Shown: positions 7,431 to 26,433 of the stretch, one piece after another
Position numbering within the stretch: position 1 is the first letter of the stretch
Layout: the number at the start of each line of letters is the position of its first letter
Origin: Candidatus Thorarchaeota archaeon
GTDB lineage: Archaea; Asgardarchaeota; Thorarchaeia; Thorarchaeales; Thorarchaeaceae
Direction: 5' to 3'
DNA: 33,188 nt
Assembly: GCA_038893995.1 (NCBI GenBank)
Contig: JAWAQK010000011.1
Location: forward strand, 1-33,188
Made by a program: the position numbers and the translations under genes
The notes under the pieces: generated by a model
The model's input: only the letters and a program-made list of their open reading frames with translations
What the model was told of the DNA's origin: nothing
Databases searched by the model: none

Positions 7431-10400
7431 TCATCTACGTCTTCGAAAGAGTGTGCTCGCGATCAACGCCCCAGCCAGCATGGCACCCGCAGCGGCTGCA
7501 AACACGACCGGCTCAAACTGGCTCGAAGTATCTATGTATGCGACTGAGGGGTCGGACCATGTACGACTGGAATCGTCTCGAACCATGAACCTCAACACAT
7601 AGCGACCTGGAGGCAGTCTGGTCTTCAGCTGCGATGAGCTGGCGACAAATATCGGCAACCCTGTAGTATTGTCAGCTGGAAAGACTTCCCACCAGTAGGT
7701 CGACGAACCAAGTACATTCTCAGCATATCCCCGTGCCATGACCACGCTCTGATTTCCAGATGGCGTCACTACGACCTCACTTATGTGTGCAACCGGCACA
7801 GGATCGCATAGTAGCTCATACCACACCGCATCGTTCTGACTTTCGAAGCAGACTATCCGACCATCTGTGACTGTTGGTGTCAGAGCATATAGTCGCCTTC
7901 CGGTGGGATCAAGAGCAAACACATGCAGAACGTTGCGCGGGGTATCGAGCTCCAACCTGACACTCACGGGCGTCAGACGTATCTGGGTGGGGGGCCGGCC
8001 CCAATACTCGGCATCCCGCGAGTTGCCCAACCGCCAACCTGTGTTCCGGACCTGAGAGCCAACGTAAATCAGTATGTGGTCTGACGATGCCAGATCATTT
8101 CCGTCGAGTGCTGACGCCATCACGACTGAGAAGTTCGTGTACGATCTGACTGACAGGACCGAAAGGTTGGCCTGATTGAAGAACCCGAGTGCGCCCTGAG
8201 TCCGACTTGCATTGACTAGAAACACTCCTGTCAATGGAGACCAGAACAGCTCCCCTGTATCAGATATCCTCCACGTGAATTCATACTGACCTGAAGGGGT
8301 ATCCTGAGACTCGGGAAGACCTTCCACTGGCCAGTGGACGCAGCCACTTCCTACTAGTGATTTGACCATCTGCAATGATGGAGGCTCGGACGGACCGAGA
8401 CTGAGCAGCTTCCTAACCCCATGCTCCAGTGGAGTTGTACCCAGCTCGAATGGTTCGTAATGGGTCATTACGCCCTCCTGCAGGTAGGTCCTGATCGATA
8501 GGGACCTGTCGAAGTAGTAGTATAGGGTGGACTGCGCCACACTCACATCGCCCCTGCGATACATGAGCGCAACAAAGGGAATGAGGGCCATGTACAGTGG
8601 GTTAGGGTCAATATCGTACGGACTTGTGATGTACCTTATGCCCAGGGGTTTTTCACCGTGAATGCCAAACAGCATCACCCCATCAAGGTCCTGAAAGGCA
8701 GAATATGCAGCGAGGAATACTGGCCCCTCGATGCATGTGGCCTGAGTGGAATAGTGATTGTACTCAGACACTGTGATCGGCTTTCCAGCTACTGCAGATG
8801 CAAGGACCCACGGTATTGTGCCTCCGTATGTGTCATTGACCATGGGGTAGTTCCATGGAAGATTGTGGTAGATGTATGCGGGGTCCCAGTAGCAGTGTTG
8901 GTCGAGATAGTCCATCCTGGCCTGACTCAACAGACTTGCAGGGCCGTAGAAGGAATTCGTCCCAGTGATTGGTATCGCGACACCCAGGCCCCGTAGATGA
9001 TCACGCATCTCTGAGAAGTACTGGGACTCCAGGTCTACGTAGAAGCGGACCTGATCCATCATCCTTGACAATGTGAAGGATCGTCGCTCACTGAAGGGTA
9101 TCCTCAATACCGTGCCTATCCATGGGTCCTCTGATGGCATAAGGCCTTGAATTCCCCCCTCTCTGAGCTCTACAGAGTCTAACCAGAAACTGACATTTCT
9201 GACACCGTTCTGGCCCAGATTGATCCGCAGTGTGCTGTCCTGTGAGCGCACAGTCTTGAAGGTGAACGAAAACTTCCTCCAGTTGAGTGACACCGTATAG
9301 TCTTCGCCAGTGTAGTCAAAAGCGCCCCAGCCATCCACGAGTACGTTCAGAGTGTCACTGGCTCTTGCCCAGAAGGTCAATGTGTATATTCGGTCTGCAG
9401 CCAGATGGATCCCGTCCTGCTTGACCCAGATGTTTGAGTATGATGAACCCGAGCACTGCTGGATGTGTATCCTGGCAGAAGCGGGCGAGTTGTGATAGAC
9501 CACAGTATCGCGACTCAAGGTTGCTATCTCAGGTAACACGCTACCAAATGACCAGTGTAAGAGGTCTGTGGAGAATTCACCGTTGAGTATCAGACTTGGA
9601 CCTGTGAAGGGAATCTCGCCGACCGCCCAGGCACTGCGCAGGTCTTCAACATTCGCATACATCTTGGAGAGCCAGTCGTTCCAGTGATGATCCAACTCGG
9701 ACACGTAATACTGGGGTAGCTCGCCACAGGACTCGGTAGGCCCCTTTGCCTGGCCGAGCCCGTACAGCTGGTCAAAGCTGTCCGCAAGAAACAGGCTATT
9801 CTCGTTCGTCACCTCGATCATTGCAAGCACTGGATCCTCAGCTAGAGACATCCCGGTGTACGGGTTGACGTGGCACAGCAGATTGGTCGCGTACTCCTTT
9901 TGGAGGTCTATCATTGTATCGTTGAAGAGTGTGACATACTTGGCCATCACCGGAAGATGTTGCCACTCGACGACACCATCGCCCCTAAGAAAAAACCGTT
10001 CGGCGTGAAGATTCATGTCTATGTATATGCCGTGCTGCTTTAACTGATATACAAAATAGTCGAACCTGTCCAGCCAGTCACTCTTCAGATGACGTGTGTC
10101 ACCCCATGCGAGGTCGAAGATGCAGTCGTCAGGGCGATAAAGAGACTCGATCTTATGAAATCGGAGGAGGTTGAAGCCAAACTTTGCAAGACGACCCGCA
10201 ATGATTTCTGCATCTGTCTTCGAAGGCGCCCCCCACCCCCAGCATACGCTCGTGCCGAGGAATCTGACTCTCGTACCATCCTCGAACTCGAAATGGCCGC
10301 TAGGAGACACGTGTAACTTGCCGTGAGTCCCAGCAGGACGATCATTGAGCCAGGTCATATCTACGGCGGAAGGAAGAGTGTCATACCAGGGAAGCTCGTA

Positions 10401-10538
10401 GTCATTCCAGACTAGAGGCTCAGATGGAGTGGTAGGTGATGGAGTCTGTTCGGGGGCAAGTCCCACGCTGGCAGCTGGAATCGGAAGCATGAAGCCCGTG
10501 AGTATCAATGCAAGAAGTGGTATCGACTCGGCGTGCAT
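7431..10538 (-). CDS. Secreted, C-terminally anchored clan GH-A (GH5-like) glycoside hydrolase with inserted CBM4_9 module
   Basis: Signal peptide; GFNLLRFH, GIYIDMNLH, VNPYTG, acid/base EVTNEN, nucleophile ITVSEYN; CBM4-like LILNGEF...YTLTFWARA...WRKFSFTF...FWLDSVEL; C-terminal TM followed by RRRR. Confidence 0.85.
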   Translation of the reverse strand: MHAESIPLLALILTGFMLPIPAASVGLAPEQTPSPTTPSEPLVWNDYELPWYDTLPSAVDMTWLNDRPAGTHGKLHVSPSGHFEFEDGTRVRFLGTSVCWGWGAPSKTDAEIIAGRLAKFGFNLLRFHKIESLYRPDDCIFDLAWGDTRHLKSDWLDRFDYFVYQLKQHGIYIDMNLHAERFFLRGDGVVEWQHLPVMAKYVTLFNDTMIDLQKEYATNLLCHVNPYTGMSLAEDPVLAMIEVTNENSLFLADSFDQLYGLGQAKGPTESCGELPQYYVSELDHHWNDWLSKMYANVEDLRSAWAVGEIPFTGPSLILNGEFSTDLLHWSFGSVLPEIATLSRDTVVYHNSPASARIHIQQCSGSSYSNIWVKQDGIHLAADRIYTLTFWARASDTLNVLVDGWGAFDYTGEDYTVSLNWRKFSFTFKTVRSQDSTLRINLGQNGVRNVSFWLDSVELREGGIQGLMPSEDPWIGTVLRIPFSERRSFTLSRMMDQVRFYVDLESQYFSEMRDHLRGLGVAIPITGTNSFYGPASLLSQARMDYLDQHCYWDPAYIYHNLPWNYPMVNDTYGGTIPWVLASAVAGKPITVSEYNHYSTQATCIEGPVFLAAYSAFQDLDGVMLFGIHGEKPLGIRYITSPYDIDPNPLYMALIPFVALMYRRGDVSVAQSTLYYYFDRSLSIRTYLQEGVMTHYEPFELGTTPLEHGVRKLLSLGPSEPPSLQMVKSLVGSGCVHWPVEGLPESQDTPSGQYEFTWRISDTGELFWSPLTGVFLVNASRTQGALGFFNQANLSVLSVRSYTNFSVVMASALDGNDLASSDHILIYVGSQVRNTGWRLGNSRDAEYWGRPPTQIRLTPVSVRLELDTPRNVLHVFALDPTGRRLYALTPTVTDGRIVCFESQNDAVWYELLCDPVPVAHISEVVVTPSGNQSVVMARGYAENVLGSSTYWWEVFPADNTTGLPIFVASSSQLKTRLPPGRYVLRFMVRDDSSRTWSDPSVAYIDTSSQFEPVVFAAAAGAMLAGALIASTLFRRRR

Positions 10539-17052: not shown

Positions 17053-17106
17053 CTTAAATCAATCGCCATGCGATGAATGGGACATCGAAAATCGATACAC
17101 TTTATA
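17053..17106. promoter_or_regulatory. Divergent promoter (acyl-CoA dehydrogenase / thiolase) with two ATCG-N5-CGAT palindromes
   Basis: Minus-strand TATA-like TTTAAG at about 17053-17058 and plus-strand TTTATA at 17101-17106; ATCGC-CAT-GCGAT (17062-17074) and ATCGA-AAA-TCGAT (17084-17096) lie between them. Confidence 0.55.
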
Positions 17107-17151
17107 CTGCGTTTTCTGGGGGTAGAGCCAAAGAATGTTGGGGTTATCTCG

Positions 17152-18324
17152 ATGCCACTCAAGAGGACCTGTATCGTAAGCGGGGCCCAGACCAAGTTTG
17201 GCCAGCTAGAGAACGTGACACTCCGCGAGATGTTCGCAGAGGCAGTAAACAGTGCCACCACGGCGGCTGGAATCCCCAAGAAAGACATCCAGGCTGTCTT
17301 TGTGGGGTCGTTCATTCCGGAGATGTTGGTCCATCAGGGTCACACTGCCCCCCTCCTAACCGACTTTGCCGGGTTGAGGGGTCTGCCCGCTACGCGACAC
17401 GAGGCAGCGTGCGCTTCCGGGGCCGTGGCATTGCGTGCGGGAATAATGGCGATTGAATCAGGACTCTACGATACGGTCCTTGTTGCTGCCGCAGAGAAGA
17501 TGACGTCGGTCTCGACAGCGAAGGCCACTGAGGCACTGGCAGCAGCTGCCGATGACGAGTTCGAATCAAGCATTGGGCTGACATTTCCAGGAGTCTTCGC
17601 GATGGCAGCGGTCGCACACATGCACAAGTACGGGACTACCGAGGAGGACATGGCTCTGGTCGCGGTGAAGGCTCACAAGAATGCCGCAACGAACCCGTAT
17701 GCGCAGTTTCAGAAGGAGATAACCCTGGAGAAGGCCATGACGCCAAAGTATATCGCGTGGCCCCTCAAGCTCTTCGACTGTTCCCCCATATCGGACGGGG
17801 CCGCAGCTGTCGTGCTCTCATCTGTCGACAAGGCCAAGCAGTATACCGACGTGCCGGTGCGGATCCTGGGGAGTGGACAGGCATCCGCATCCATGGATCT
17901 GTGTGCAAGGGGAGACCTCACGACCTTCGAGGCATCAGTCAGGGCCAGCCGAGAGGCCTACAAGATGGCCGGACTGGGCCCGGAGGACATGGACATGGCA
18001 GTCGTCCACGACTGCTTCACAATCGCTGAGATAATTGCGACCGAGGACATCGGATTCTTCCCGAAGGGTCAGGGAGCAAAGGCAGTACGGGAAGGTGTAA
18101 CTGCAAGAGACGGGGCGAAACCCGTGAATCCCGACGGTGGACTGAAGGCAGTAGGTCATCCGGTCGGCGCCACTGGAGTGAAACAGGCTGTAGTATGCTT
18201 CAAGCAGCTCACAGGAAGGGCGGGAGCAAACCAAGTCCCAGACTGCAAGACTGCAATAATGCACAATTTCGGCGGCACAGGAGCCACTTGTGTGTGCAAT
18301 GTGTTCAGGAGGGCTGACGCATGA
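17152..18324 (+). CDS. Archaeal/SCP2-type thiolase (acetyl-CoA acetyltransferase)
   Basis: HEAACASG, DCSPISDGAAA, VHDCF, GHPVGATG, HNFGG. Start corrected to ATG 17152 (MPLKR). Confidence 0.95.
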   Translation: MPLKRTCIVSGAQTKFGQLENVTLREMFAEAVNSATTAAGIPKKDIQAVFVGSFIPEMLVHQGHTAPLLTDFAGLRGLPATRHEAACASGAVALRAGIMAIESGLYDTVLVAAAEKMTSVSTAKATEALAAAADDEFESSIGLTFPGVFAMAAVAHMHKYGTTEEDMALVAVKAHKNAATNPYAQFQKEITLEKAMTPKYIAWPLKLFDCSPISDGAAAVVLSSVDKAKQYTDVPVRILGSGQASASMDLCARGDLTTFEASVRASREAYKMAGLGPEDMDMAVVHDCFTIAEIIATEDIGFFPKGQGAKAVREGVTARDGAKPVNPDGGLKAVGHPVGATGVKQAVVCFKQLTGRAGANQVPDCKTAIMHNFGGTGATCVCNVFRRADA

Positions 18325-18710
18325 GCGAGTCACCTAGTATCTATCAGTACAAGAAGAACATAGAGGCAGGGACCTTCAAGGCATACAAATGCAATGACTG
18401 CGGGGCGGTCATCGCACCTCCGCTGGGTGCATGTTATTCATGTGGTGGCACCAAGATGAGCTGGACAGATGTGAGCGGTCGCGGGACTCTCGTATCGTTC
18501 ACTGTGATCCACGTTGCTCCTGAGGAGTTTGCCAGTGAAGCACCTTACTACGTGGCAGTAGTGAAACTTGACGAGGGGCCCAACATCACGGCAAGGCTGA
18601 CAGGCTTTGACCCGAGCAGACCGCAGGACGTCAAGGTGGGAATGCCACTCAGGATGACATATGTCACAGCTCAGTCCGGGAAGAAGTATCTGGCATTTGG
18701 ACCTGCGTGA
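18321..18710 (+). CDS. DUF35 Zn-ribbon/OB-fold thiolase partner
   Basis: CNDC...CYSC, GTLVSFTVIH, PYYVAVVKLDEG; ATGA overlap with the thiolase stop. Confidence 0.93.
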   Translation: MSESPSIYQYKKNIEAGTFKAYKCNDCGAVIAPPLGACYSCGGTKMSWTDVSGRGTLVSFTVIHVAPEEFASEAPYYVAVVKLDEGPNITARLTGFDPSRPQDVKVGMPLRMTYVTAQSGKKYLAFGPA

Positions 18711-20844: not shown

Positions 20845-21188
20845 CGGTCGGAACTTGCTTCTCCAAACAGCCCATCTGCAGCCTTTAGGGCATCTCGGAC
20901 CTCTTCTCTAGAGAATGACTCAAGCGTTCCCTTCTTTGCGATGCGGATTGTGACCAGCGCATCCTCGTCCCGAGGGGCCATCTCCCACGATACCTCGTAC
21001 TGGGGGCGTTCATTGACAAACTGCCTCAGCATCGCGAACCATGCCTCCTTCACGTCGTCAATGCGGACGTATAGGAAGTCAATCAGGGGTATCGTGACCT
21101 CCACTGTGAGCACTCTGCCAGATGTGACGTAGTAGTTCTCTATGTTCCAGGGCAAGGAGGGCCACCCGAGAAATGGAAAGCCTTCCAT
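20841..21188 (-). CDS. Hypothetical alpha/beta protein (115 aa) directly downstream of the large receptor-like gene
   Basis: ATG start 31 bp after the upstream stop, protein-like composition, and it fills the gap up to the convergent LarA-like stop. Confidence 0.7.
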   Translation of the reverse strand: MEGFPFLGWPSLPWNIENYYVTSGRVLTVEVTIPLIDFLYVRIDDVKEAWFAMLRQFVNERPQYEVSWEMAPRDEDALVTIRIAKKGTLESFSREEVRDALKAADGLFGEASSDR

Positions 21189-21219: not shown

Positions 21220-24200
21220 CTAGCTCGTGGAGCTACCCTTTCGACTTCGGGACCTCTCCTTCTTCTTCTTCTCTTCCTTCAGGAGTTCCTCTACCTCCTG
21301 GACGAACTTCTCGGCCTCATCCTCAGGTTTCTTGGGTTCCGGCGGAGCCTCAGCAGGAGGCCCTTCTTCAGCCTTCCTCCTGAGTAGCGCCTCAACTTCC
21401 ATGACAAACGCCTCCTCCTCAGAGGGCTTGACCACTTGGGGCTGTGGCTCTACTGGAGGCTCAGGGACCACCTGTTTCTCAGCTGCACCGGGCGGTGCAA
21501 TCGGCTCCTCTGCCTCTACAGAGACCGTCTCTGCCTCCGTGGAGGTCACGTTGGAAGAGCCAGGCTCAGGCTGAGGTTCAGTTGGTCTAACTTCGGGTTC
21601 AGTGACTGGCGTCGCAGTCTCTATAGGTCCGATCTCCTGATCTGGATGGGCCAGTGGAAGAGGACCAGGGACCTCTACCTCGAGCGGCGCGATAGCGCCT
21701 GAGCCACGCATGCGTAGGAGATGGTCAAGTACCAGAGGCTCCGACATTCCAGTCTCTCGGGCTAGCCTCGGGAGAATGTCATCAAACCGGAACTCTCTGT
21801 CGCCTACGAGCTTCTTCAGAGCCCTGAAGAGGCCCATATCACTCTTCTTCACCAGTCGATCGTTGACTATTCTGTGTGGAAGCAGCCGATCGTAGTCGAA
21901 GACAGAGTAGAGCGAACTGACAATCCATTTGCTGTCGAAACAGTCCGTAAATCCGGTCCAGCCATCCAGTTCACTGTCGTAACGTACCTCAAACAGGTCA
22001 ACAAATGTCCTCAGACGTTCTCTCAGGAACGGAGTCATCTCGCCCTCCAGGATCAGTATCCCGGCGATGTGTCTTCCAGAGTAGCCGTTCAGCCTGAGAC
22101 CCTGGTAGTTGATCTCCTCAAGAGTGCCCTGTACACCGTCTCCCTTGATCTCTCCGTAGACACTCATGACAGCAGAGATGAAACCACTCACGAGATGAGG
22201 TTCAATCTTCTGCTCAGTAAACGGATGGTAAAAGACACACGTACCGCGATTGAGGTATATTGCCATGAAGTGTCGCAACGACATCAGGTCTCTGAAGTTA
22301 TTCATCTGGTCCTCGAGTTGTTTTCTCTTTCTGAGCCTCTTGGTCCTTGCAGACCTGGTGCGTCCGTACGTGACCACCCCCACCACTGTTATGAGGGCAA
22401 TGACGAGGAGCACGTCACGCTGGGTCAGGAATCGGACGAGCAGAATGAAGAACGAAGGTGGCTGAACAGGAATGTTCGCTGCCACCTTAGTGGCCTTCCA
22501 CTGCGAATCCGTCCCCGGATACCGTGCCACCACTGTCATCCTGACGGCGCTAGGTGGAACGTCGTAGGTGGTAGTTGCCAGCCCATTCGTGCTAGTTATG
22601 GCCGAGAGTTCACTCTGCAAGACCGTGCCATTGTCTAGTTCGACAGAGATGTAGAAGGTCACGGACACACCTACCAGAGGTGCATGGGTCCCGTTGTACC
22701 GGACATACGCACCTATGGCCATGACAACTCCCTGGTAGGGCGCCAGAGGTAGCAACTCAATATAGACGCGCTGTTTGGGCTGGACTATGATCGTCGCACT
22801 TGTCGTGTTTGCACTGTATCCGTGTGCCCATGCCGCGAAGACGGCGGTGTAGCCAATCATAGACGGATCGATGGTCAGGTTGAAGACGTATCTGTAGACA
22901 CCATTTCCCACATGTACCATCGGGTAGACATTCCCTGCTACTGTCATGTTTACGATGGCAACCGTGATTGGCAGGTCTCGGTCGAGGTCACGGTATGTGA
23001 CCTGGACTGTGATATTGCAGTACTCGTAGTTCGTGTAGGAGAGAACAGAGCTGAGTGATGTGCGAATAGGTCTGACTGTGATGCTGTGGAGTATCTGCCC
23101 GTAGCTGTAGTTCTCCAGTCCAATTGTGATGTTCAGTTGATGTATAGCAAAGGACAGCATCTGTGCCGAGATTGTAAACCGGTACCGACCAGGCGCAAGC
23201 ACCTCAGTTGGGATTGAGTTGCTCCAAGAGGCGGATACGTAGGTAGCATCGATCAGTGCGCCTGTGTGCGCGTTCCTGTATTCGACGACCACGACGACGG
23301 TCTGGTTGAAATACATCACGTCTGGAATCGCTATGTCTGTCAGCATGGTGGTTGGCACTGGACGAACCTCTACGGACAGGGGTACGGTCTGATCCTCGTA
23401 TCCGTAGACAACGAAACTCGCAGAACCCGCAATCGTGCCCACTCCGAGGAAACTGCCCAGGAACGATCTGACGTAACTGCCATTGCCAAGGTCGGTCATC
23501 GGATATGTTGCGGTGCCTAAGACAAGTACAACGTTCAGACCTATCAGGGGATTGTTGGCAATATCTCTGCAGACCACTACCAGGTAAAGCTGACCATCGT
23601 AGTAGAGCGTACCCGTGGGATTGCCATCGTACCCTATGTAGTGGGGGATTATCGTCAGAGTCGTTGGCGTATCTATGACTCTGAGTGTCACATCAACGGT
23701 TGCATTAGTGTAGCCGTATGAGAGGAGATATACCCGCATCGGATACTCTCCAAGGCCAATACTCCCGTTTAGGAGTAGCCGATAGATTCCCGGTAAGATC
23801 TGATTCAGAGTGAAATTGGTGCCTCCGAGGTCCGCACGGACAACTGCACCATTCACGAGATAGCCCTGCGAACTCCTCACCGTGACATCAAGGCTGACCT
23901 GCCAGGAGTAGTACAGATCGTATGAGTACCAGTTGGGGGTCAGAGATGCAGTGTCGACAATGATGACGATCCCGTCGGTGAGATTTGTCCTATCAACGAA
24001 TCCATAACGCCATGCTCTCACTGTCGCCTGGTATGTTCCTAGTCCGAGATCGTTGACGGGGATGCTCACAGTCCACATAGTACCATTGAAGAGGAGCTCG
24101 TACACTTTCCCGTCAATGGTCACATTCACCAACGATCCTGAACTCGGCACATCGCCCCCCTGATAGCGATAGTCCACGGACAGGCGCAGCACACCGCCGT

Positions 24201-26433
24201 ACGGCACTGTGACGTTGGCCGGCGACCATGATACAGTCAGGTCTGTTGGTTCAAGAGAGATTGTGAGGGCTGTGTCTGCAGTCCTGCTGTAATGTTGGTT
24301 CTTCCAGGCACTTATAACAAGCGGGTTGTTGCCTATGTTCAACCCCATCAGACCGTTCAGGGTGACATTGTAGGTACCACTCGATGGATGCCACTGTAGG
24401 GTCCAGTAGCGCAGTCCGTCAGTTACATTCACAACTGCATTCGGAATGCTCGTACCATTTGCATATCTGTAGGAGACAGCAAGGTTCGCATCCTGAGTGT
24501 AGGTTATGCTGCTGCCTGGCGTCCACGTCAGGGAGAGCGCTAGCGTGGAGTATACTATTTCGACATCGATCGCGGCAGTCCGGTTCTGCAATGCAAAACC
24601 ACTGGCACTGATGACTATCTGATAGCTGCCGACAGACTTGCCCAGCGTCGACACAGTCGCCTTCCAGGTCCCATTGTTCAGGTCAGTCATGGGGACATAG
24701 GGAGCTCCGTCGAATGAGTATGTGACGGATGCGGCGGGTGACTTGAGTCCCTGAGGCGTGAAGGTGTCATTGTAGTAGACACTGAAACTGAAGGACTCGT
24801 CGGTGCCGACAAGCACGCTACTCTGATAGACTCTCAGGTCAGTGGGATAATAGACCACGACATCTCTAGTTCGGTACCCAGCCTCTGTACCATTGGCCCA
24901 GAAGACCTCGATCCTGTAACGACCGTTCGTAGTAGTGAATGCATCGATGTTCCACAGATAGGTGCGGATCCCGTCTGGCTCACTCTCATTTGCAGGCCTC
25001 GTGATAACAGATGTGTCTTTCCAGAATGTCAGGTTCGAACTTCCGGAGGAGACTGGGACCGATAGTGCATCTCGGAAGTTTATTGTCACGAGTAGGTCGT
25101 CGGTGATCACTACCGAGCTAGAAGCATCGATACTGGTCACGTAGTTGTGGGCAGAATACACCATTGTCCATGTTCCGTCGCTCATCTCTGTGCAGACCAC
25201 AGTCCTGCCGTGGACAGAATACTTGTCGTGATTAGTCGGCGATGACCCAAGATAGAGTCCAGTGGGAGTCCAGTCAGTCATCCTTGTCAGGTTCACAAAG
25301 CGGGAAACAGTGCCCGTAGGAATCGACGGGTAGCTCAGAGTCAGGCTCTGGTTCCATACGATAGATCCACCCGACGTTGGGGCATTCCAGAGTGTCGTTG
25401 TGGTGATGGGTCGTGAGTACCAGAGTGTCAGGGAGTATCCAACGGCGACTGATAGGTTTGAGTCGAAACGCAATTGTGTGATGTTCTTTGCACTCGTAAA
25501 CGTCCACGAGAGTCCTGACAAAGGTGTAGAGTTGCACTGTAACGCGACGCGGGAGGGATCCGAAAAACTCAGAGCGCTGCCGGAGGTGGTGTTCCAGGGA
25601 ACATAGGCATAGCGTAGGAGTGCCTCATATAGTAGTGCGCCCCCCCATTGACCATACTCCGTATCGAATCTACGTGTGTCGTACGTACCTGCTCCGTTCT
25701 GGGACCTCCACCTGATCAACGGGTAGACTCCATCGTATTCGGTCAATCCGCTTCCATCAATTATCACATAGTACTCGCTGTTGGCCGACAGATAAGCTAT
25801 GGATTGGACAGTGAGCCACGTAGCGGGGAAGATGGAGTTCATCAGTGGAGATGGGATGGTCATGTTCGACGATGACGGAGAGGACCGAACGACAAAGTAT
25901 GCAGTCCCAAAGAGAGTCCTGTTATATGTCGTAGCGTCAAGGAAGAGTGAGAAGTTGAGAAGTCTTCCGTTGTGAGGCTTCATATAGAAGCCCTGAGCGA
26001 GCTGGTTGATGTAGTAGGGTTGAGATGGTTTCTTCGTTATCTGAAAGTCCCAGCTCTCGCTGTTGACTCCGGCAACTGCGCGTTCGGCAATCGCAGTGAT
26101 ATACTGGACCTCCATGTCAACCCTGTGCAGGTTCCAACTAGGAACGAGATAGCTGTTCAGGTCAAGCACACCGGTGTGAGATGAAGGATTGGCATAGGTG
26201 TTCAGTACCTTCGTCACCTGCCCATCGAGCCTACGAGTCATATATGCGACCCCACTAAACTCGGCTCCAGTTCCGCCAGCATCAGACAGTGTCAGAACGT
26301 CTGTTGGAGAGATGATTCCCTGTGGTTGGTCAATTCTCTCATGGGGGCTGCTCACACCGCCAGGAGAGCAAGAACTTGTAAGCAGTAGTAGCAACGTGAT
26401 GGCGCAGATGAGCATCCTTGGTCCAAGTCCCAT
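21220..26433 (-). CDS. 1737-aa single-pass membrane protein: Ig-like repeat ectodomain, TM, cytoplasmic longin-like domain, winged helix, Pro/Glu-rich tail
   Basis: Signal peptide; about 100-aa beta-rich repeats with G.Y motifs and many NxS/T sequons; TM VLLVIALITVVGVVTY followed by a basic stop-transfer stretch; LRHFMAIYLNRGTCVFY...HLVSGFISAV...EEINYQG...F..RY matches the Asgard longin-like pattern as I recall it. Confidence 0.85.
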   Translation of the reverse strand: MGLGPRMLICAITLLLLLTSSCSPGGVSSPHERIDQPQGIISPTDVLTLSDAGGTGAEFSGVAYMTRRLDGQVTKVLNTYANPSSHTGVLDLNSYLVPSWNLHRVDMEVQYITAIAERAVAGVNSESWDFQITKKPSQPYYINQLAQGFYMKPHNGRLLNFSLFLDATTYNRTLFGTAYFVVRSSPSSSNMTIPSPLMNSIFPATWLTVQSIAYLSANSEYYVIIDGSGLTEYDGVYPLIRWRSQNGAGTYDTRRFDTEYGQWGGALLYEALLRYAYVPWNTTSGSALSFSDPSRVALQCNSTPLSGLSWTFTSAKNITQLRFDSNLSVAVGYSLTLWYSRPITTTTLWNAPTSGGSIVWNQSLTLSYPSIPTGTVSRFVNLTRMTDWTPTGLYLGSSPTNHDKYSVHGRTVVCTEMSDGTWTMVYSAHNYVTSIDASSSVVITDDLLVTINFRDALSVPVSSGSSNLTFWKDTSVITRPANESEPDGIRTYLWNIDAFTTTNGRYRIEVFWANGTEAGYRTRDVVVYYPTDLRVYQSSVLVGTDESFSFSVYYNDTFTPQGLKSPAASVTYSFDGAPYVPMTDLNNGTWKATVSTLGKSVGSYQIVISASGFALQNRTAAIDVEIVYSTLALSLTWTPGSSITYTQDANLAVSYRYANGTSIPNAVVNVTDGLRYWTLQWHPSSGTYNVTLNGLMGLNIGNNPLVISAWKNQHYSRTADTALTISLEPTDLTVSWSPANVTVPYGGVLRLSVDYRYQGGDVPSSGSLVNVTIDGKVYELLFNGTMWTVSIPVNDLGLGTYQATVRAWRYGFVDRTNLTDGIVIIVDTASLTPNWYSYDLYYSWQVSLDVTVRSSQGYLVNGAVVRADLGGTNFTLNQILPGIYRLLLNGSIGLGEYPMRVYLLSYGYTNATVDVTLRVIDTPTTLTIIPHYIGYDGNPTGTLYYDGQLYLVVVCRDIANNPLIGLNVVLVLGTATYPMTDLGNGSYVRSFLGSFLGVGTIAGSASFVVYGYEDQTVPLSVEVRPVPTTMLTDIAIPDVMYFNQTVVVVVEYRNAHTGALIDATYVSASWSNSIPTEVLAPGRYRFTISAQMLSFAIHQLNITIGLENYSYGQILHSITVRPIRTSLSSVLSYTNYEYCNITVQVTYRDLDRDLPITVAIVNMTVAGNVYPMVHVGNGVYRYVFNLTIDPSMIGYTAVFAAWAHGYSANTTSATIIVQPKQRVYIELLPLAPYQGVVMAIGAYVRYNGTHAPLVGVSVTFYISVELDNGTVLQSELSAITSTNGLATTTYDVPPSAVRMTVVARYPGTDSQWKATKVAANIPVQPPSFFILLVRFLTQRDVLLVIALITVVGVVTYGRTRSARTKRLRKRKQLEDQMNNFRDLMSLRHFMAIYLNRGTCVFYHPFTEQKIEPHLVSGFISAVMSVYGEIKGDGVQGTLEEINYQGLRLNGYSGRHIAGILILEGEMTPFLRERLRTFVDLFEVRYDSELDGWTGFTDCFDSKWIVSSLYSVFDYDRLLPHRIVNDRLVKKSDMGLFRALKKLVGDREFRFDDILPRLARETGMSEPLVLDHLLRMRGSGAIAPLEVEVPGPLPLAHPDQEIGPIETATPVTEPEVRPTEPQPEPGSSNVTSTEAETVSVEAEEPIAPPGAAEKQVVPEPPVEPQPQVVKPSEEEAFVMEVEALLRRKAEEGPPAEAPPEPKKPEDEAEKFVQEVEELLKEEKKKKERSRSRKGSSTS

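Follow-up and report, generated by a model that had tools for sequence, protein, structure and literature searches.

Longin domains form part of the core of eukaryotic membrane traffic, where they are found in SNAREs, coat adaptors, TRAPP and the regulators of Rab and Rag GTPases, and Asgard archaea are known for their many soluble longins. In its accessible text, the survey of Liu et al. (bioRxiv 10.1101/2020.10.19.343400) lists 130 Roadblock/longin asCOGs, reports that most Thor genomes encode 'NPRL2-like' longin families and that such longins occur fused to two-component domains, and mentions no fusion to a transmembrane (TM) helix and giant ectodomain. For the archaeal cell surface, immunoglobulin (Ig)-like domains are common in surface-layer (S-layer) proteins (PMC8640222), and in Lokiarchaeum cryo-electron tomography has revealed a single membrane whose surface densities are complex and unordered, without an ordered S-layer (PMC9834061). 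Here we describe a gene that joins parts of both kinds, located at positions 21220..26433 on the reverse strand of a 33,188-nucleotide (nt) stretch of DNA (contig JAWAQK010000011.1, hereafter the window) from a hot-spring Thorarchaeota genome of 2.33 Mb in 82 contigs that is 91% complete. The gene is a single ATG-initiated open reading frame (ORF) of 1737 codons, and its 1737-amino-acid (aa) product, P0001, is predicted to be a type I single-pass membrane protein with a longin-fold domain at the inner end of a very large ectodomain. The DNA runs containing the stretch are hot-spring metagenomes, and no RNA run is among the runs listed for it.

The architecture of P0001 is a new combination of known parts. 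No published description of a surface protein with a TM-tethered longin domain was found in open-access papers and preprints. The structural reading is supported by the comparisons given below, while the GTPase-coupled signalling suggested in a preliminary description, made by reading the translated sequence, is unsupported. What is new here is the conservation of the protein region by region, a motif in its cytoplasmic tail, the anatomy of its ectodomain, and a negative test for GTPase genes in the neighbourhood of the ortholog group.

The cytoplasmic longin-fold domain

The residues that follow the TM helix (aa 1360-1600) were modelled by AlphaFold2 (AF2) from 25 aligned relatives, with a predicted local distance difference test score (pLDDT) of 90.5 and a predicted template-modelling score of 0.85. 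The model consists, in order, of a juxtamembrane helix, a β-β-α-β-β-β-α-α domain, three helices with a strand, and a disordered end. The second of these parts, at aa 1385-1517 (model residues 26-158; window 21883..22281, reverse strand), has strands and helices assigned by DSSP at E27-34, E39-45, H53-71, E78-84, E87-93, E97-103, H109-130 and H142-158. These elements form a five-stranded antiparallel sheet in the order β1-β2-α1-β3-β4-β5-α2-α3, with a single helix on one side of the sheet and a pair on the opposite side, which is the arrangement that defines the longin fold. The segment LVSGFISAV lies within this domain.

Structure comparisons of the cytoplasmic model point to the same fold. The best Foldseek matches are AP sigma, the TRAPP subunits Bet5, Trs23 and sedlin, zeta-COP, VAMP7 and Fuzzy. 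When the model was compared by VIA-align with all of 48,161 representative chains, the Z scores were 12.2 for AP5 sigma, 12.1 for VAMP7, 11.9 for Sec22, 11.8 for Fuzzy, 11.7 for sedlin and 11.4 for a Lokiarchaeota longin, and a second VIA-align comparison gave 12.9 for Sec22b (root-mean-square deviation [rmsd] 2.6, 120 residues aligned), 12.8 for TRAPPC4/Trs23, 12.5 for Fuzzy, 12.2 for VAMP7 and 11.9 for the Loki longin 8yqg. In three independent structure comparisons longins come first, with Z of 11.5-12.9 over 118-128 residues. Roadblock proteins (MglB, LAMTOR and Asgard Roadblocks) reach Z of 9-11.3, over model residues 22-132 only, whereas longin chains align over residues 26-158. The Roadblock/LC7 order is α-β-β-α-β-β-β, without the two C-terminal helices of longins. 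In the model, the juxtamembrane helix stands where roadblocks have their N-terminal helix, the further helices at 109-158 correspond to those of longins, and there is no match to Pfam Robl_LC7. The boundary between longin and Roadblock/LC7 is soft, the two folds being related.

Sequence searches do not place the domain in a known family. For aa 1360-1600 no Pfam family was found at E <= 0.1, and for the whole of P0001 none that is relevant at E <= 1; the Pfam families Longin, Sybindin, Sedlin and Clat_adaptor_s all stay below their gathering thresholds, and searches of PDB sequences with the cytoplasmic part, by phmmer and by profile, returned nothing significant. The predicted structure supports the assignment of aa 1385-1517 as a longin fold. 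The preliminary description had proposed an alpha/beta domain at about aa 1384-1510 containing LVSGFISAV, and had called it longin-like; AF2, Foldseek and VIA-align agree with it on both counts, and the two findings that it named as contrary, a non-longin fold or a location outside the cell, were looked for and neither was found.

Eukaryotic longins have the same fold and order of elements, as in Sec22b, VAMP7 and Ykt6, TRAPPC1/2/4, the N-termini of AP sigma and mu and zeta-COP, the LD1 domains of Fuzzy, Mon1 and Ccz1, and the SRX domain of SR-alpha, with Z of 11-12.9 and rmsd of 2.6-3.3 over 115-128 residues; P0001 differs from them in having no sequence-level membership and no Pfam match. 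Membrane attachment of the domain, predicted for P0001, is also a feature of the R-SNARE longins and of SRX. However, the longin SNAREs are tail-anchored proteins with the SNARE motif between longin and TM helix, whereas the order is reversed in P0001, where a 1300-aa ectodomain is followed by the TM helix and then by the longin domain. The R-SNAREs Sec22, VAMP7 and Ykt6 also carry a SNARE motif of ~53 aa in heptads, in place of which P0001 has only two conserved motifs of ~9 aa in its tail, and P0001 is not a member of that group. With the soluble longins of Asgard archaea, such as the Lokiarchaeota Roadblock-Longin protein 8yqg (Z 11.4-11.9), P0001 shares an Asgard-specific expansion, but its module differs from theirs in being linked, through a TM helix that precedes it, to a giant ectodomain predicted to be glycosylated.

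In the case of the longins of GTPase-activating protein (GAP) type (FLCN, NPRL2 and SMCR8/C9orf72), the longin fold is again common to both, and Foldseek matches at E of ~6e-4 to 3e-3 include GATOR1/SEA and FLCN chains; NPRL2 and NPRL3 are absent from the top 50 VIA-align rows for the P0001 module. GAP-type longins are defined by a GP motif at the end of the β1-β2 loop or the start of β2, next to the arginine finger (Traffic 2025, PMC12290439). This motif is absent from P0001, where the loop reads N-R-G-T-C, as against D-R-G-T-C in the orthologs and s-G-[TLVI] in the wider family, and P0001 does not belong to the GAP-type class. The arginine of this loop is conserved only inside the Thor ortholog group, and no arginine is conserved family-wide.

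The longin domain is the most constrained part of the protein, with a median identity of 68% (range 56-73) to 105 orthologs, as compared to 38% for the head of the ectodomain, 30% for the Ig-like array, 31% for the winged-helix-like unit and 32% for the tail. Loops of the domain are near-invariant in the ortholog group, namely the D-R-G-T-C hairpin, Y-G-E-I-K-G-D-G after helix 1 and E-G-E-M-T-P before helix 2. Such focused constraint is the pattern expected of a conserved binding interface, and suggests that the longin domain has one.

Relatives of the cytoplasmic part are numerous. Searched with a 241-aa query, a set of 1.8 billion proteins yielded 490 cluster representatives at E <= 1e-3. 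There are ~100 long orthologs that, where named, are mostly from Thorarchaeota, and more distant members are named Promethearchaeota, Lokiarchaeota or Helarchaeota. The P0001 gene is single-copy in its source genome, and one ortholog per genome is the rule for the same family (21 of 24 genomes). A profile of the longin and winged-helix-like module matches in 98 of the 101 Asgard genomes sampled, each positive genome having 2-24 matches. In 103 of 106 orthologs, and in 98 of 124 more distant representatives, a TM helix is found no more than 100 aa upstream of the module; therefore, membrane tethering is the dominant layout among the top-scoring relatives of P0001. The family appears to be Asgard-wide, and in it giant surface proteins, predicted to be glycosylated, carry at their inner end a strongly conserved longin that lies directly beneath the membrane.

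Three soluble paralogs of ~380-410 aa are encoded in the source genome (G000), at C11:47295-47597 (L002), C75:4922-5332 (L003) and C8:52574-52861 (L004). Each has an N-terminal longin homologous to the P0001 module and a further C-terminal region without a Pfam match, and profile-profile comparison with the P0001 module by hhalign extends through the longin into the winged-helix-like unit (probability 98.5%, E 1.5e-15). Most likely they correspond to the Thor 'NPRL2-like' family described by Liu et al., the asCOG identity being assumed, and they are candidate heterodimer partners of the P0001 longin domain.

The longin domain is followed by a unit at aa 1530-1583 (21685..21846, reverse strand) that AF2 models at pLDDT 95-98 as three helices and a strand (H171-184, H191-202, H206-219 and E222-224). 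A winged helix proper has a bundle of three helices and then a beta-hairpin wing. The winged-helix-like segment of the preliminary description is retained as far as this secondary structure goes, while profile matches to winged helices are weak and not significant (MCM C-terminal winged helix, E 0.07; the Lrp/NirD-type helix-turn-helix [HTH] protein 4ch7_A, E 0.21 over the whole chain). The match lists of structure searches with the cytoplasmic model were filled by the longin domain, so the label winged-helix-like reflects secondary structure and weak profiles, and an ESM Atlas search with this part gave no usable match. In at least 90% of the orthologs a conserved segment with the consensus ...I-x-T-[IV]-L-Q-R-Q-G-L-G-L follows directly after this unit; P0001 is without it and has a Pro-rich stretch instead (aa ~1585-1600).

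The remainder of the protein, aa 1588-1737 (21223..21672, reverse strand), is by composition the acidic, disordered tail that had been proposed and is rich in Pro, with a net charge of -16, 22% Glu and 17% Pro (the median charge in orthologs is -25). It contains two copies of an amphipathic motif, F-[VL]-x-[DE]-V-E-x-L-L, as FVMEVEALL at aa 1676-1684 (21382..21408) and FVQEVEELL at aa 1710-1718 (21280..21306), both on the reverse strand. At least one copy is present in 88 of 105 ortholog tails, as a rule at a distance of 15-45 residues from the C-terminus, as compared to 1 of 5200 shuffled tails; apart from the motif the tail is poorly conserved. The motif is limited to the Thorarchaeota ortholog group; elsewhere it occurs only in close relatives or fragments (longin-HMM [hidden Markov model] E <= 1e-12) and not in distant subfamilies. 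We take its last six residues to resemble the eukaryotic acidic-dileucine pattern [DE]xxxL[LI], and its spacing presumably resembles that of MIT-interacting helices.

Membrane topology and the ectodomain

A Kyte-Doolittle scan of P0001 has two peaks only, one at the N-terminus and one at aa ~1329-1359. The first (aa 1-25) corresponds to a signal-peptide-like N-terminus at aa 1-~24 (26362..26433, reverse strand), in which one Arg precedes a Leu-rich hydrophobic core, LICAITLLLLL. The second contains the TM helix, V1341-G1357 (22363..22413, reverse strand), and directly after it stands RTRSARTKRLRKRK at aa 1358-1371, with eight Arg or Lys in 14 residues. This polybasic stop-transfer sequence, R1358-K1371, runs into a juxtamembrane helix that extends to aa 1384 (22282..22362, reverse strand; helix at model residues 2-25, pLDDT 93-97). 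There are 36 NxS/T sequons in total, 35 of which fall in the ectodomain, where 14.4 are expected from composition, and one in the ~380 cytoplasmic residues past the TM helix. The C-terminal part is placed in the cytoplasm because of the positive-inside rule and this 35:1 asymmetry. Hydropathy, flanking charge and sequon counts together support a type I topology with the N-terminus outside and the C-terminus inside, and the ectodomain is probably N-glycosylated and exposed at the surface. A signal peptide, one TM helix near aa 1340-1356 and 30 or more sequons, counted by eye, had all been noted in the preliminary description, and the scan and counts agree with it.

The ectodomain was modelled over aa 30-830 by AF2 from an alignment of 41 orthologs, and the model is all-beta with a mean pLDDT of 89.9. 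Its outermost part is a head at aa ~25-428 (25150..26361, reverse strand) that has no Pfam match. Within the head, a predicted lectin-like or jelly-roll domain at aa ~115-287 (model residues 86-258; 25573-26091, reverse strand) is matched by VIA-align to the phage phi812 baseplate protein (Z 12.4, 146 residues aligned, rmsd 2.9) and to the lectin-like domain of Cwp84 (Z 11.6).

The head is followed by an array of Ig-like or macroglobulin (MG)-like beta-sandwiches at aa ~429-1222 (22768..25149, reverse strand), detected by iterated HMMs, VIA-align and Foldseek. Seven tandem repeats of ~99 aa at aa ~542-1222 were recovered as the same set from three independent HMM seeds; iteration was needed, as plain self-BLAST of the ectodomain shows no internal repeats. 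The AF2 model adds an Ig-like domain at aa ~429-529. The best VIA-align match of the array is an MG domain of alpha2-macroglobulin (Z 12.4, rmsd 2.1, 94 aa). Model residues 400-500, 501-600, 600-698 and 699-800 are each an MG-, PKD- or Ig-like sandwich, PKD, NCAM and other single-domain matches score Z 9.3-11.3, and there are VIA-align matches to invasin and to RTX-adhesin repeats. The ~100-aa tandem units are thus beta-sandwiches of the Ig-like/MG type by both VIA-align and the repeat HMMs. Foldseek matches the ectodomain to chains of Ig-like or MG domains, namely complement C3 and C5, titin, contactin and an RTX adhesin, at E of ~1e-12 to 1e-11, and to the S-layer proteins of Nitrosopumilus maritimus (8c8m) and Haloferax volcanii (7ptp) at E of ~5e-12 to 2e-11. 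Pfam Big_1 and Invasin_D3 match the ectodomain at sub-threshold levels only.

Between the array and the membrane lies a probable further beta domain at aa ~1225-1325 (22459..22761, reverse strand), with a sub-threshold match to Pfam Big_1 (E 0.018); some orthologs have PF13620 or PF02369. The preliminary description had counted roughly eight Ig-like repeats of ~100 aa in a beta-rich ectodomain of ~1330 aa, which is a fair estimate because there are seven by HMM, one more by structure at aa ~429-529, and the probable Big_1-like domain next to the membrane. Homology over the full length of the ectodomain extends to ~100 orthologs at 31-47% identity, and the alignments contain register shifts of ~100-490 residues. 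Therefore, the orthologs differ by one to five repeat units. As modelled, the stalk of P0001 is a sequon-rich chain of eight or nine Ig/MG-like beta-sandwich domains, the number of which varies between orthologs.

Possible roles of the membrane-tethered longin module

We read P0001 as a large type I surface-coat or adhesion glycoprotein whose longin module docks a cytoplasmic partner, with a probability of about 0.6. On the outside, a lectin-like head would be carried by the stalk of eight or nine Ig/MG-like domains; one TM helix and the polybasic stop-transfer would hold the protein in the membrane; and inside would lie the strongly constrained longin domain, the near-neutral to acidic winged-helix-like unit, and the acidic tail of ~150 aa with one or two copies of the motif. 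The longin module would then be a membrane-fixed docking platform for a conserved cytoplasmic partner, and the tail motif would either provide another, short docking site or bind in the longin groove of P0001 itself. By likeness to eukaryotic longins, a small GTPase is one candidate partner. Several points weigh against this reading: the docking role is argued from conservation and from known longin behaviour; the fold assignments rest on predicted structures because no Pfam or NCBIfam model matches whole P0001, or pieces of it, above threshold; and no GTPase or Roadblock gene was found within ~6-9 kb of the gene at 19 ortholog loci.

The last of these points also bears on the proposal of the preliminary description, a receptor for adhesion or sensing through which contact would be passed on to small GTPases or to machinery that remodels membranes. 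In such a receptor, ligand or contact at the ectodomain would alter the state of the longin domain, which in turn would act as a guanine nucleotide exchange factor, a GAP or a platform for small GTPases or Roadblock proteins. The confirmed longin fold and its constraint fit this proposal, as do the ~31 P-loop small-GTPase ORFs and 15 Roadblock/LC7 loci of the source genome, which could supply clients; none of these, however, is near the P0001 gene. Neighbourhoods were compared at 77 loci, the 19 ortholog loci and ~58 more distant ones, by crude ORF calls. At the distant loci, 19 of ~700 neighbouring ORFs are GTPases (~2.7%), 3 of them directly adjacent, which is close to the genomic background as roughly estimated from published Asgard GTPase content; against this rough estimate, no enrichment of GTPase genes around family loci was seen. 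The proposal draws on an analogy, in that Asgard longins are widely put forward as GTPase regulators (Liu et al., bioRxiv 10.1101/2020.10.19.343400; PMC12290439), but the GP motif is absent from P0001, no arginine is conserved family-wide, and a single rigid TM helix under a glycosylated stalk of 1300 aa offers no obvious route for a signal. Signalling of this kind is therefore unsupported here, and we consider it unlikely. The exception may be one distant subgroup, L020, L026, L027 and L028 (genomes G032, G100, G076 and G054), where the receptor gene is preceded by a gene of 119-232 aa (~230 aa at three of these four loci), and that in turn by a GTPase gene of ~360-390 aa; this arrangement, with the GTPase one gene off the receptor, may be meaningful for that subgroup only.

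Another possibility is that P0001 is the main envelope glycoprotein, an S-layer-like coat in which the longin and winged-helix-like units dimerise or anchor the protein to the membrane or cytoskeleton and regulate nothing. To our knowledge, S-layer glycoproteins and Ig-repeat adhesins are without a folded cytoplasmic domain. The S-layer glycoproteins of H. volcanii (csg, 7ptp) and N. maritimus (SLP, 8c8m), and the invasin and RTX adhesins, do share with P0001 a signal peptide, sequons (enriched in P0001), a chain of Ig-like domains, an anchor towards the C-terminus and variable repeats, and many archaeal S-layer proteins contain Ig-like domains (PMC8640222). These sequence features are compatible with an S-layer glycoprotein, a class that builds the two-dimensional lattice of the envelope and ranks among the most abundant proteins of a cell. 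The gene is also single-copy and conserved across the family, and longin and roadblock domains are usually dimeric, 8yqg being an example. However, complement C3, titin and contactin rank equally with the S-layer proteins in Foldseek, as any Ig-like chain would, and ~380 residues of P0001, including its best-conserved part, lie inside the cell. Up to 24 matches to the module in other Asgard genomes also make a poor fit to a single lattice protein, and the imaged envelope, from a lokiarchaeon and not a Thorarchaeon, had unordered densities (PMC9834061). We thus hold a purely structural coat to be quite improbable. An even less plausible alternative is a membrane-tethered transcription factor, whose winged helix would bind DNA at the membrane or after proteolytic release. 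The winged-helix-like unit is modelled, and JGI annotates a few orthologs as 'DNA-binding Lrp family transcriptional regulator'; there is also the weak Lrp/NirD-type profile match. These profile matches are not significant, however, and the median net charge of -1 and median pI of 5.3 for the segment in orthologs argue against DNA binding, and a tail with a median charge of -25 follows. The unit is also far less conserved than the longin domain (31% versus 68% identity), and this alternative is very improbable.

The docking reading has a more specific form, which we regard as improbable, in which P0001 and its relatives would be a prokaryotic counterpart of cargo or adhesion receptors that contain their own sorting module. 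Here the membrane-fixed longin domain and the conserved D/E-V-E-x-L-L tail helix, which is acidic-dileucine-like or MIM-like, would draw the trafficking, ESCRT or cytoskeletal machinery of Asgard cells to surface contacts, and the helix might serve as a switch by folding back into the longin groove, which is also seen in VAMP7 and Ykt6. If true, this would be a physical link from outside to inside made of eukaryote-type parts before eukaryotes. More generally, cryo-electron tomography of Lokiarchaeum has raised the question of how the unusual surface of Asgard cells is connected to the eukaryote-like machinery inside them, and the P0001 family is a testable candidate for that connection. The partner of the tail would tell whether GTPase-type or coat-type membrane biology was tied to the surface before eukaryogenesis; should the tail be a structural anchor only, the finding reduces to an interesting envelope protein.

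Genes neighbouring P0001

The gene directly downstream encodes P0108 (20841..21188, reverse strand), a protein of ~104 aa from a likely TTG start at 21155, which agrees with the M-P-W start of its orthologs. A homolog with 52-64% identity lies on the same strand directly downstream of the receptor gene in 16 of 17 family loci, with a gap of about 42-132 nt, mostly 45-68 nt, and the P0108 family, which is single-copy, was found in 18 of the 20 genomes sampled from this family and in the single one sampled from the sister family, but in none of 79 genomes from the other 21 families. P0108 belongs to no known family, and its ESM Atlas model (pLDDT 0.60) gives low-TM (template-modelling) and heterogeneous matches. 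Its gene is convergent with a LarA-like gene, with a 4-nt overlap, and the LarA-like, DedA/VTT, thiolase, DUF2299 and nitrilase-like genes are as syntenic as P0108 is.

The idea of P0108 as a dedicated partner of P0001 is weakened by two genomes. In G019, where the receptor gene is 670 kb away, P0108 still has the DedA-like (VTT) gene on one side and DUF2299 on the other; in G025, of the sister family, P0108 adjoins LarA and there is no receptor gene at the site. P0108 is thus treated as a syntenic neighbour because these genomes keep the LarA/DedA/DUF2299 block without the receptor, and conserved synteny explains the adjacency. Complex prediction for aa 1360-1591 with P0108 scored 0.00 in both runs, which is not evidence either way.

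Upstream of the receptor gene, P0109 (26882-27541, reverse strand) is a 219-aa protein with a signal peptide, an ectodomain of ~120 aa containing Cys and Trp, one TM helix, and a cytoplasmic zinc ribbon at its end (Pfam Zn_ribbon_3, E 5e-6, slightly below threshold). It was considered as part of the receptor locus and set aside, as it has no homolog in any related locus fetched. Elsewhere in the window, a 1035-aa ORF at 7431-10538 (reverse strand) has sub-threshold matches to CBM_4_9 and GH5 cellulase and may be a secreted glycoside hydrolase. At 17077-18710 (forward strand), within the synteny block, a thiolase gene is followed by a ChsH2-type OB-fold/zinc-ribbon gene, both ~80% identical across the family, which we take to be the usual archaeal acetoacetyl-CoA thiolase pair.

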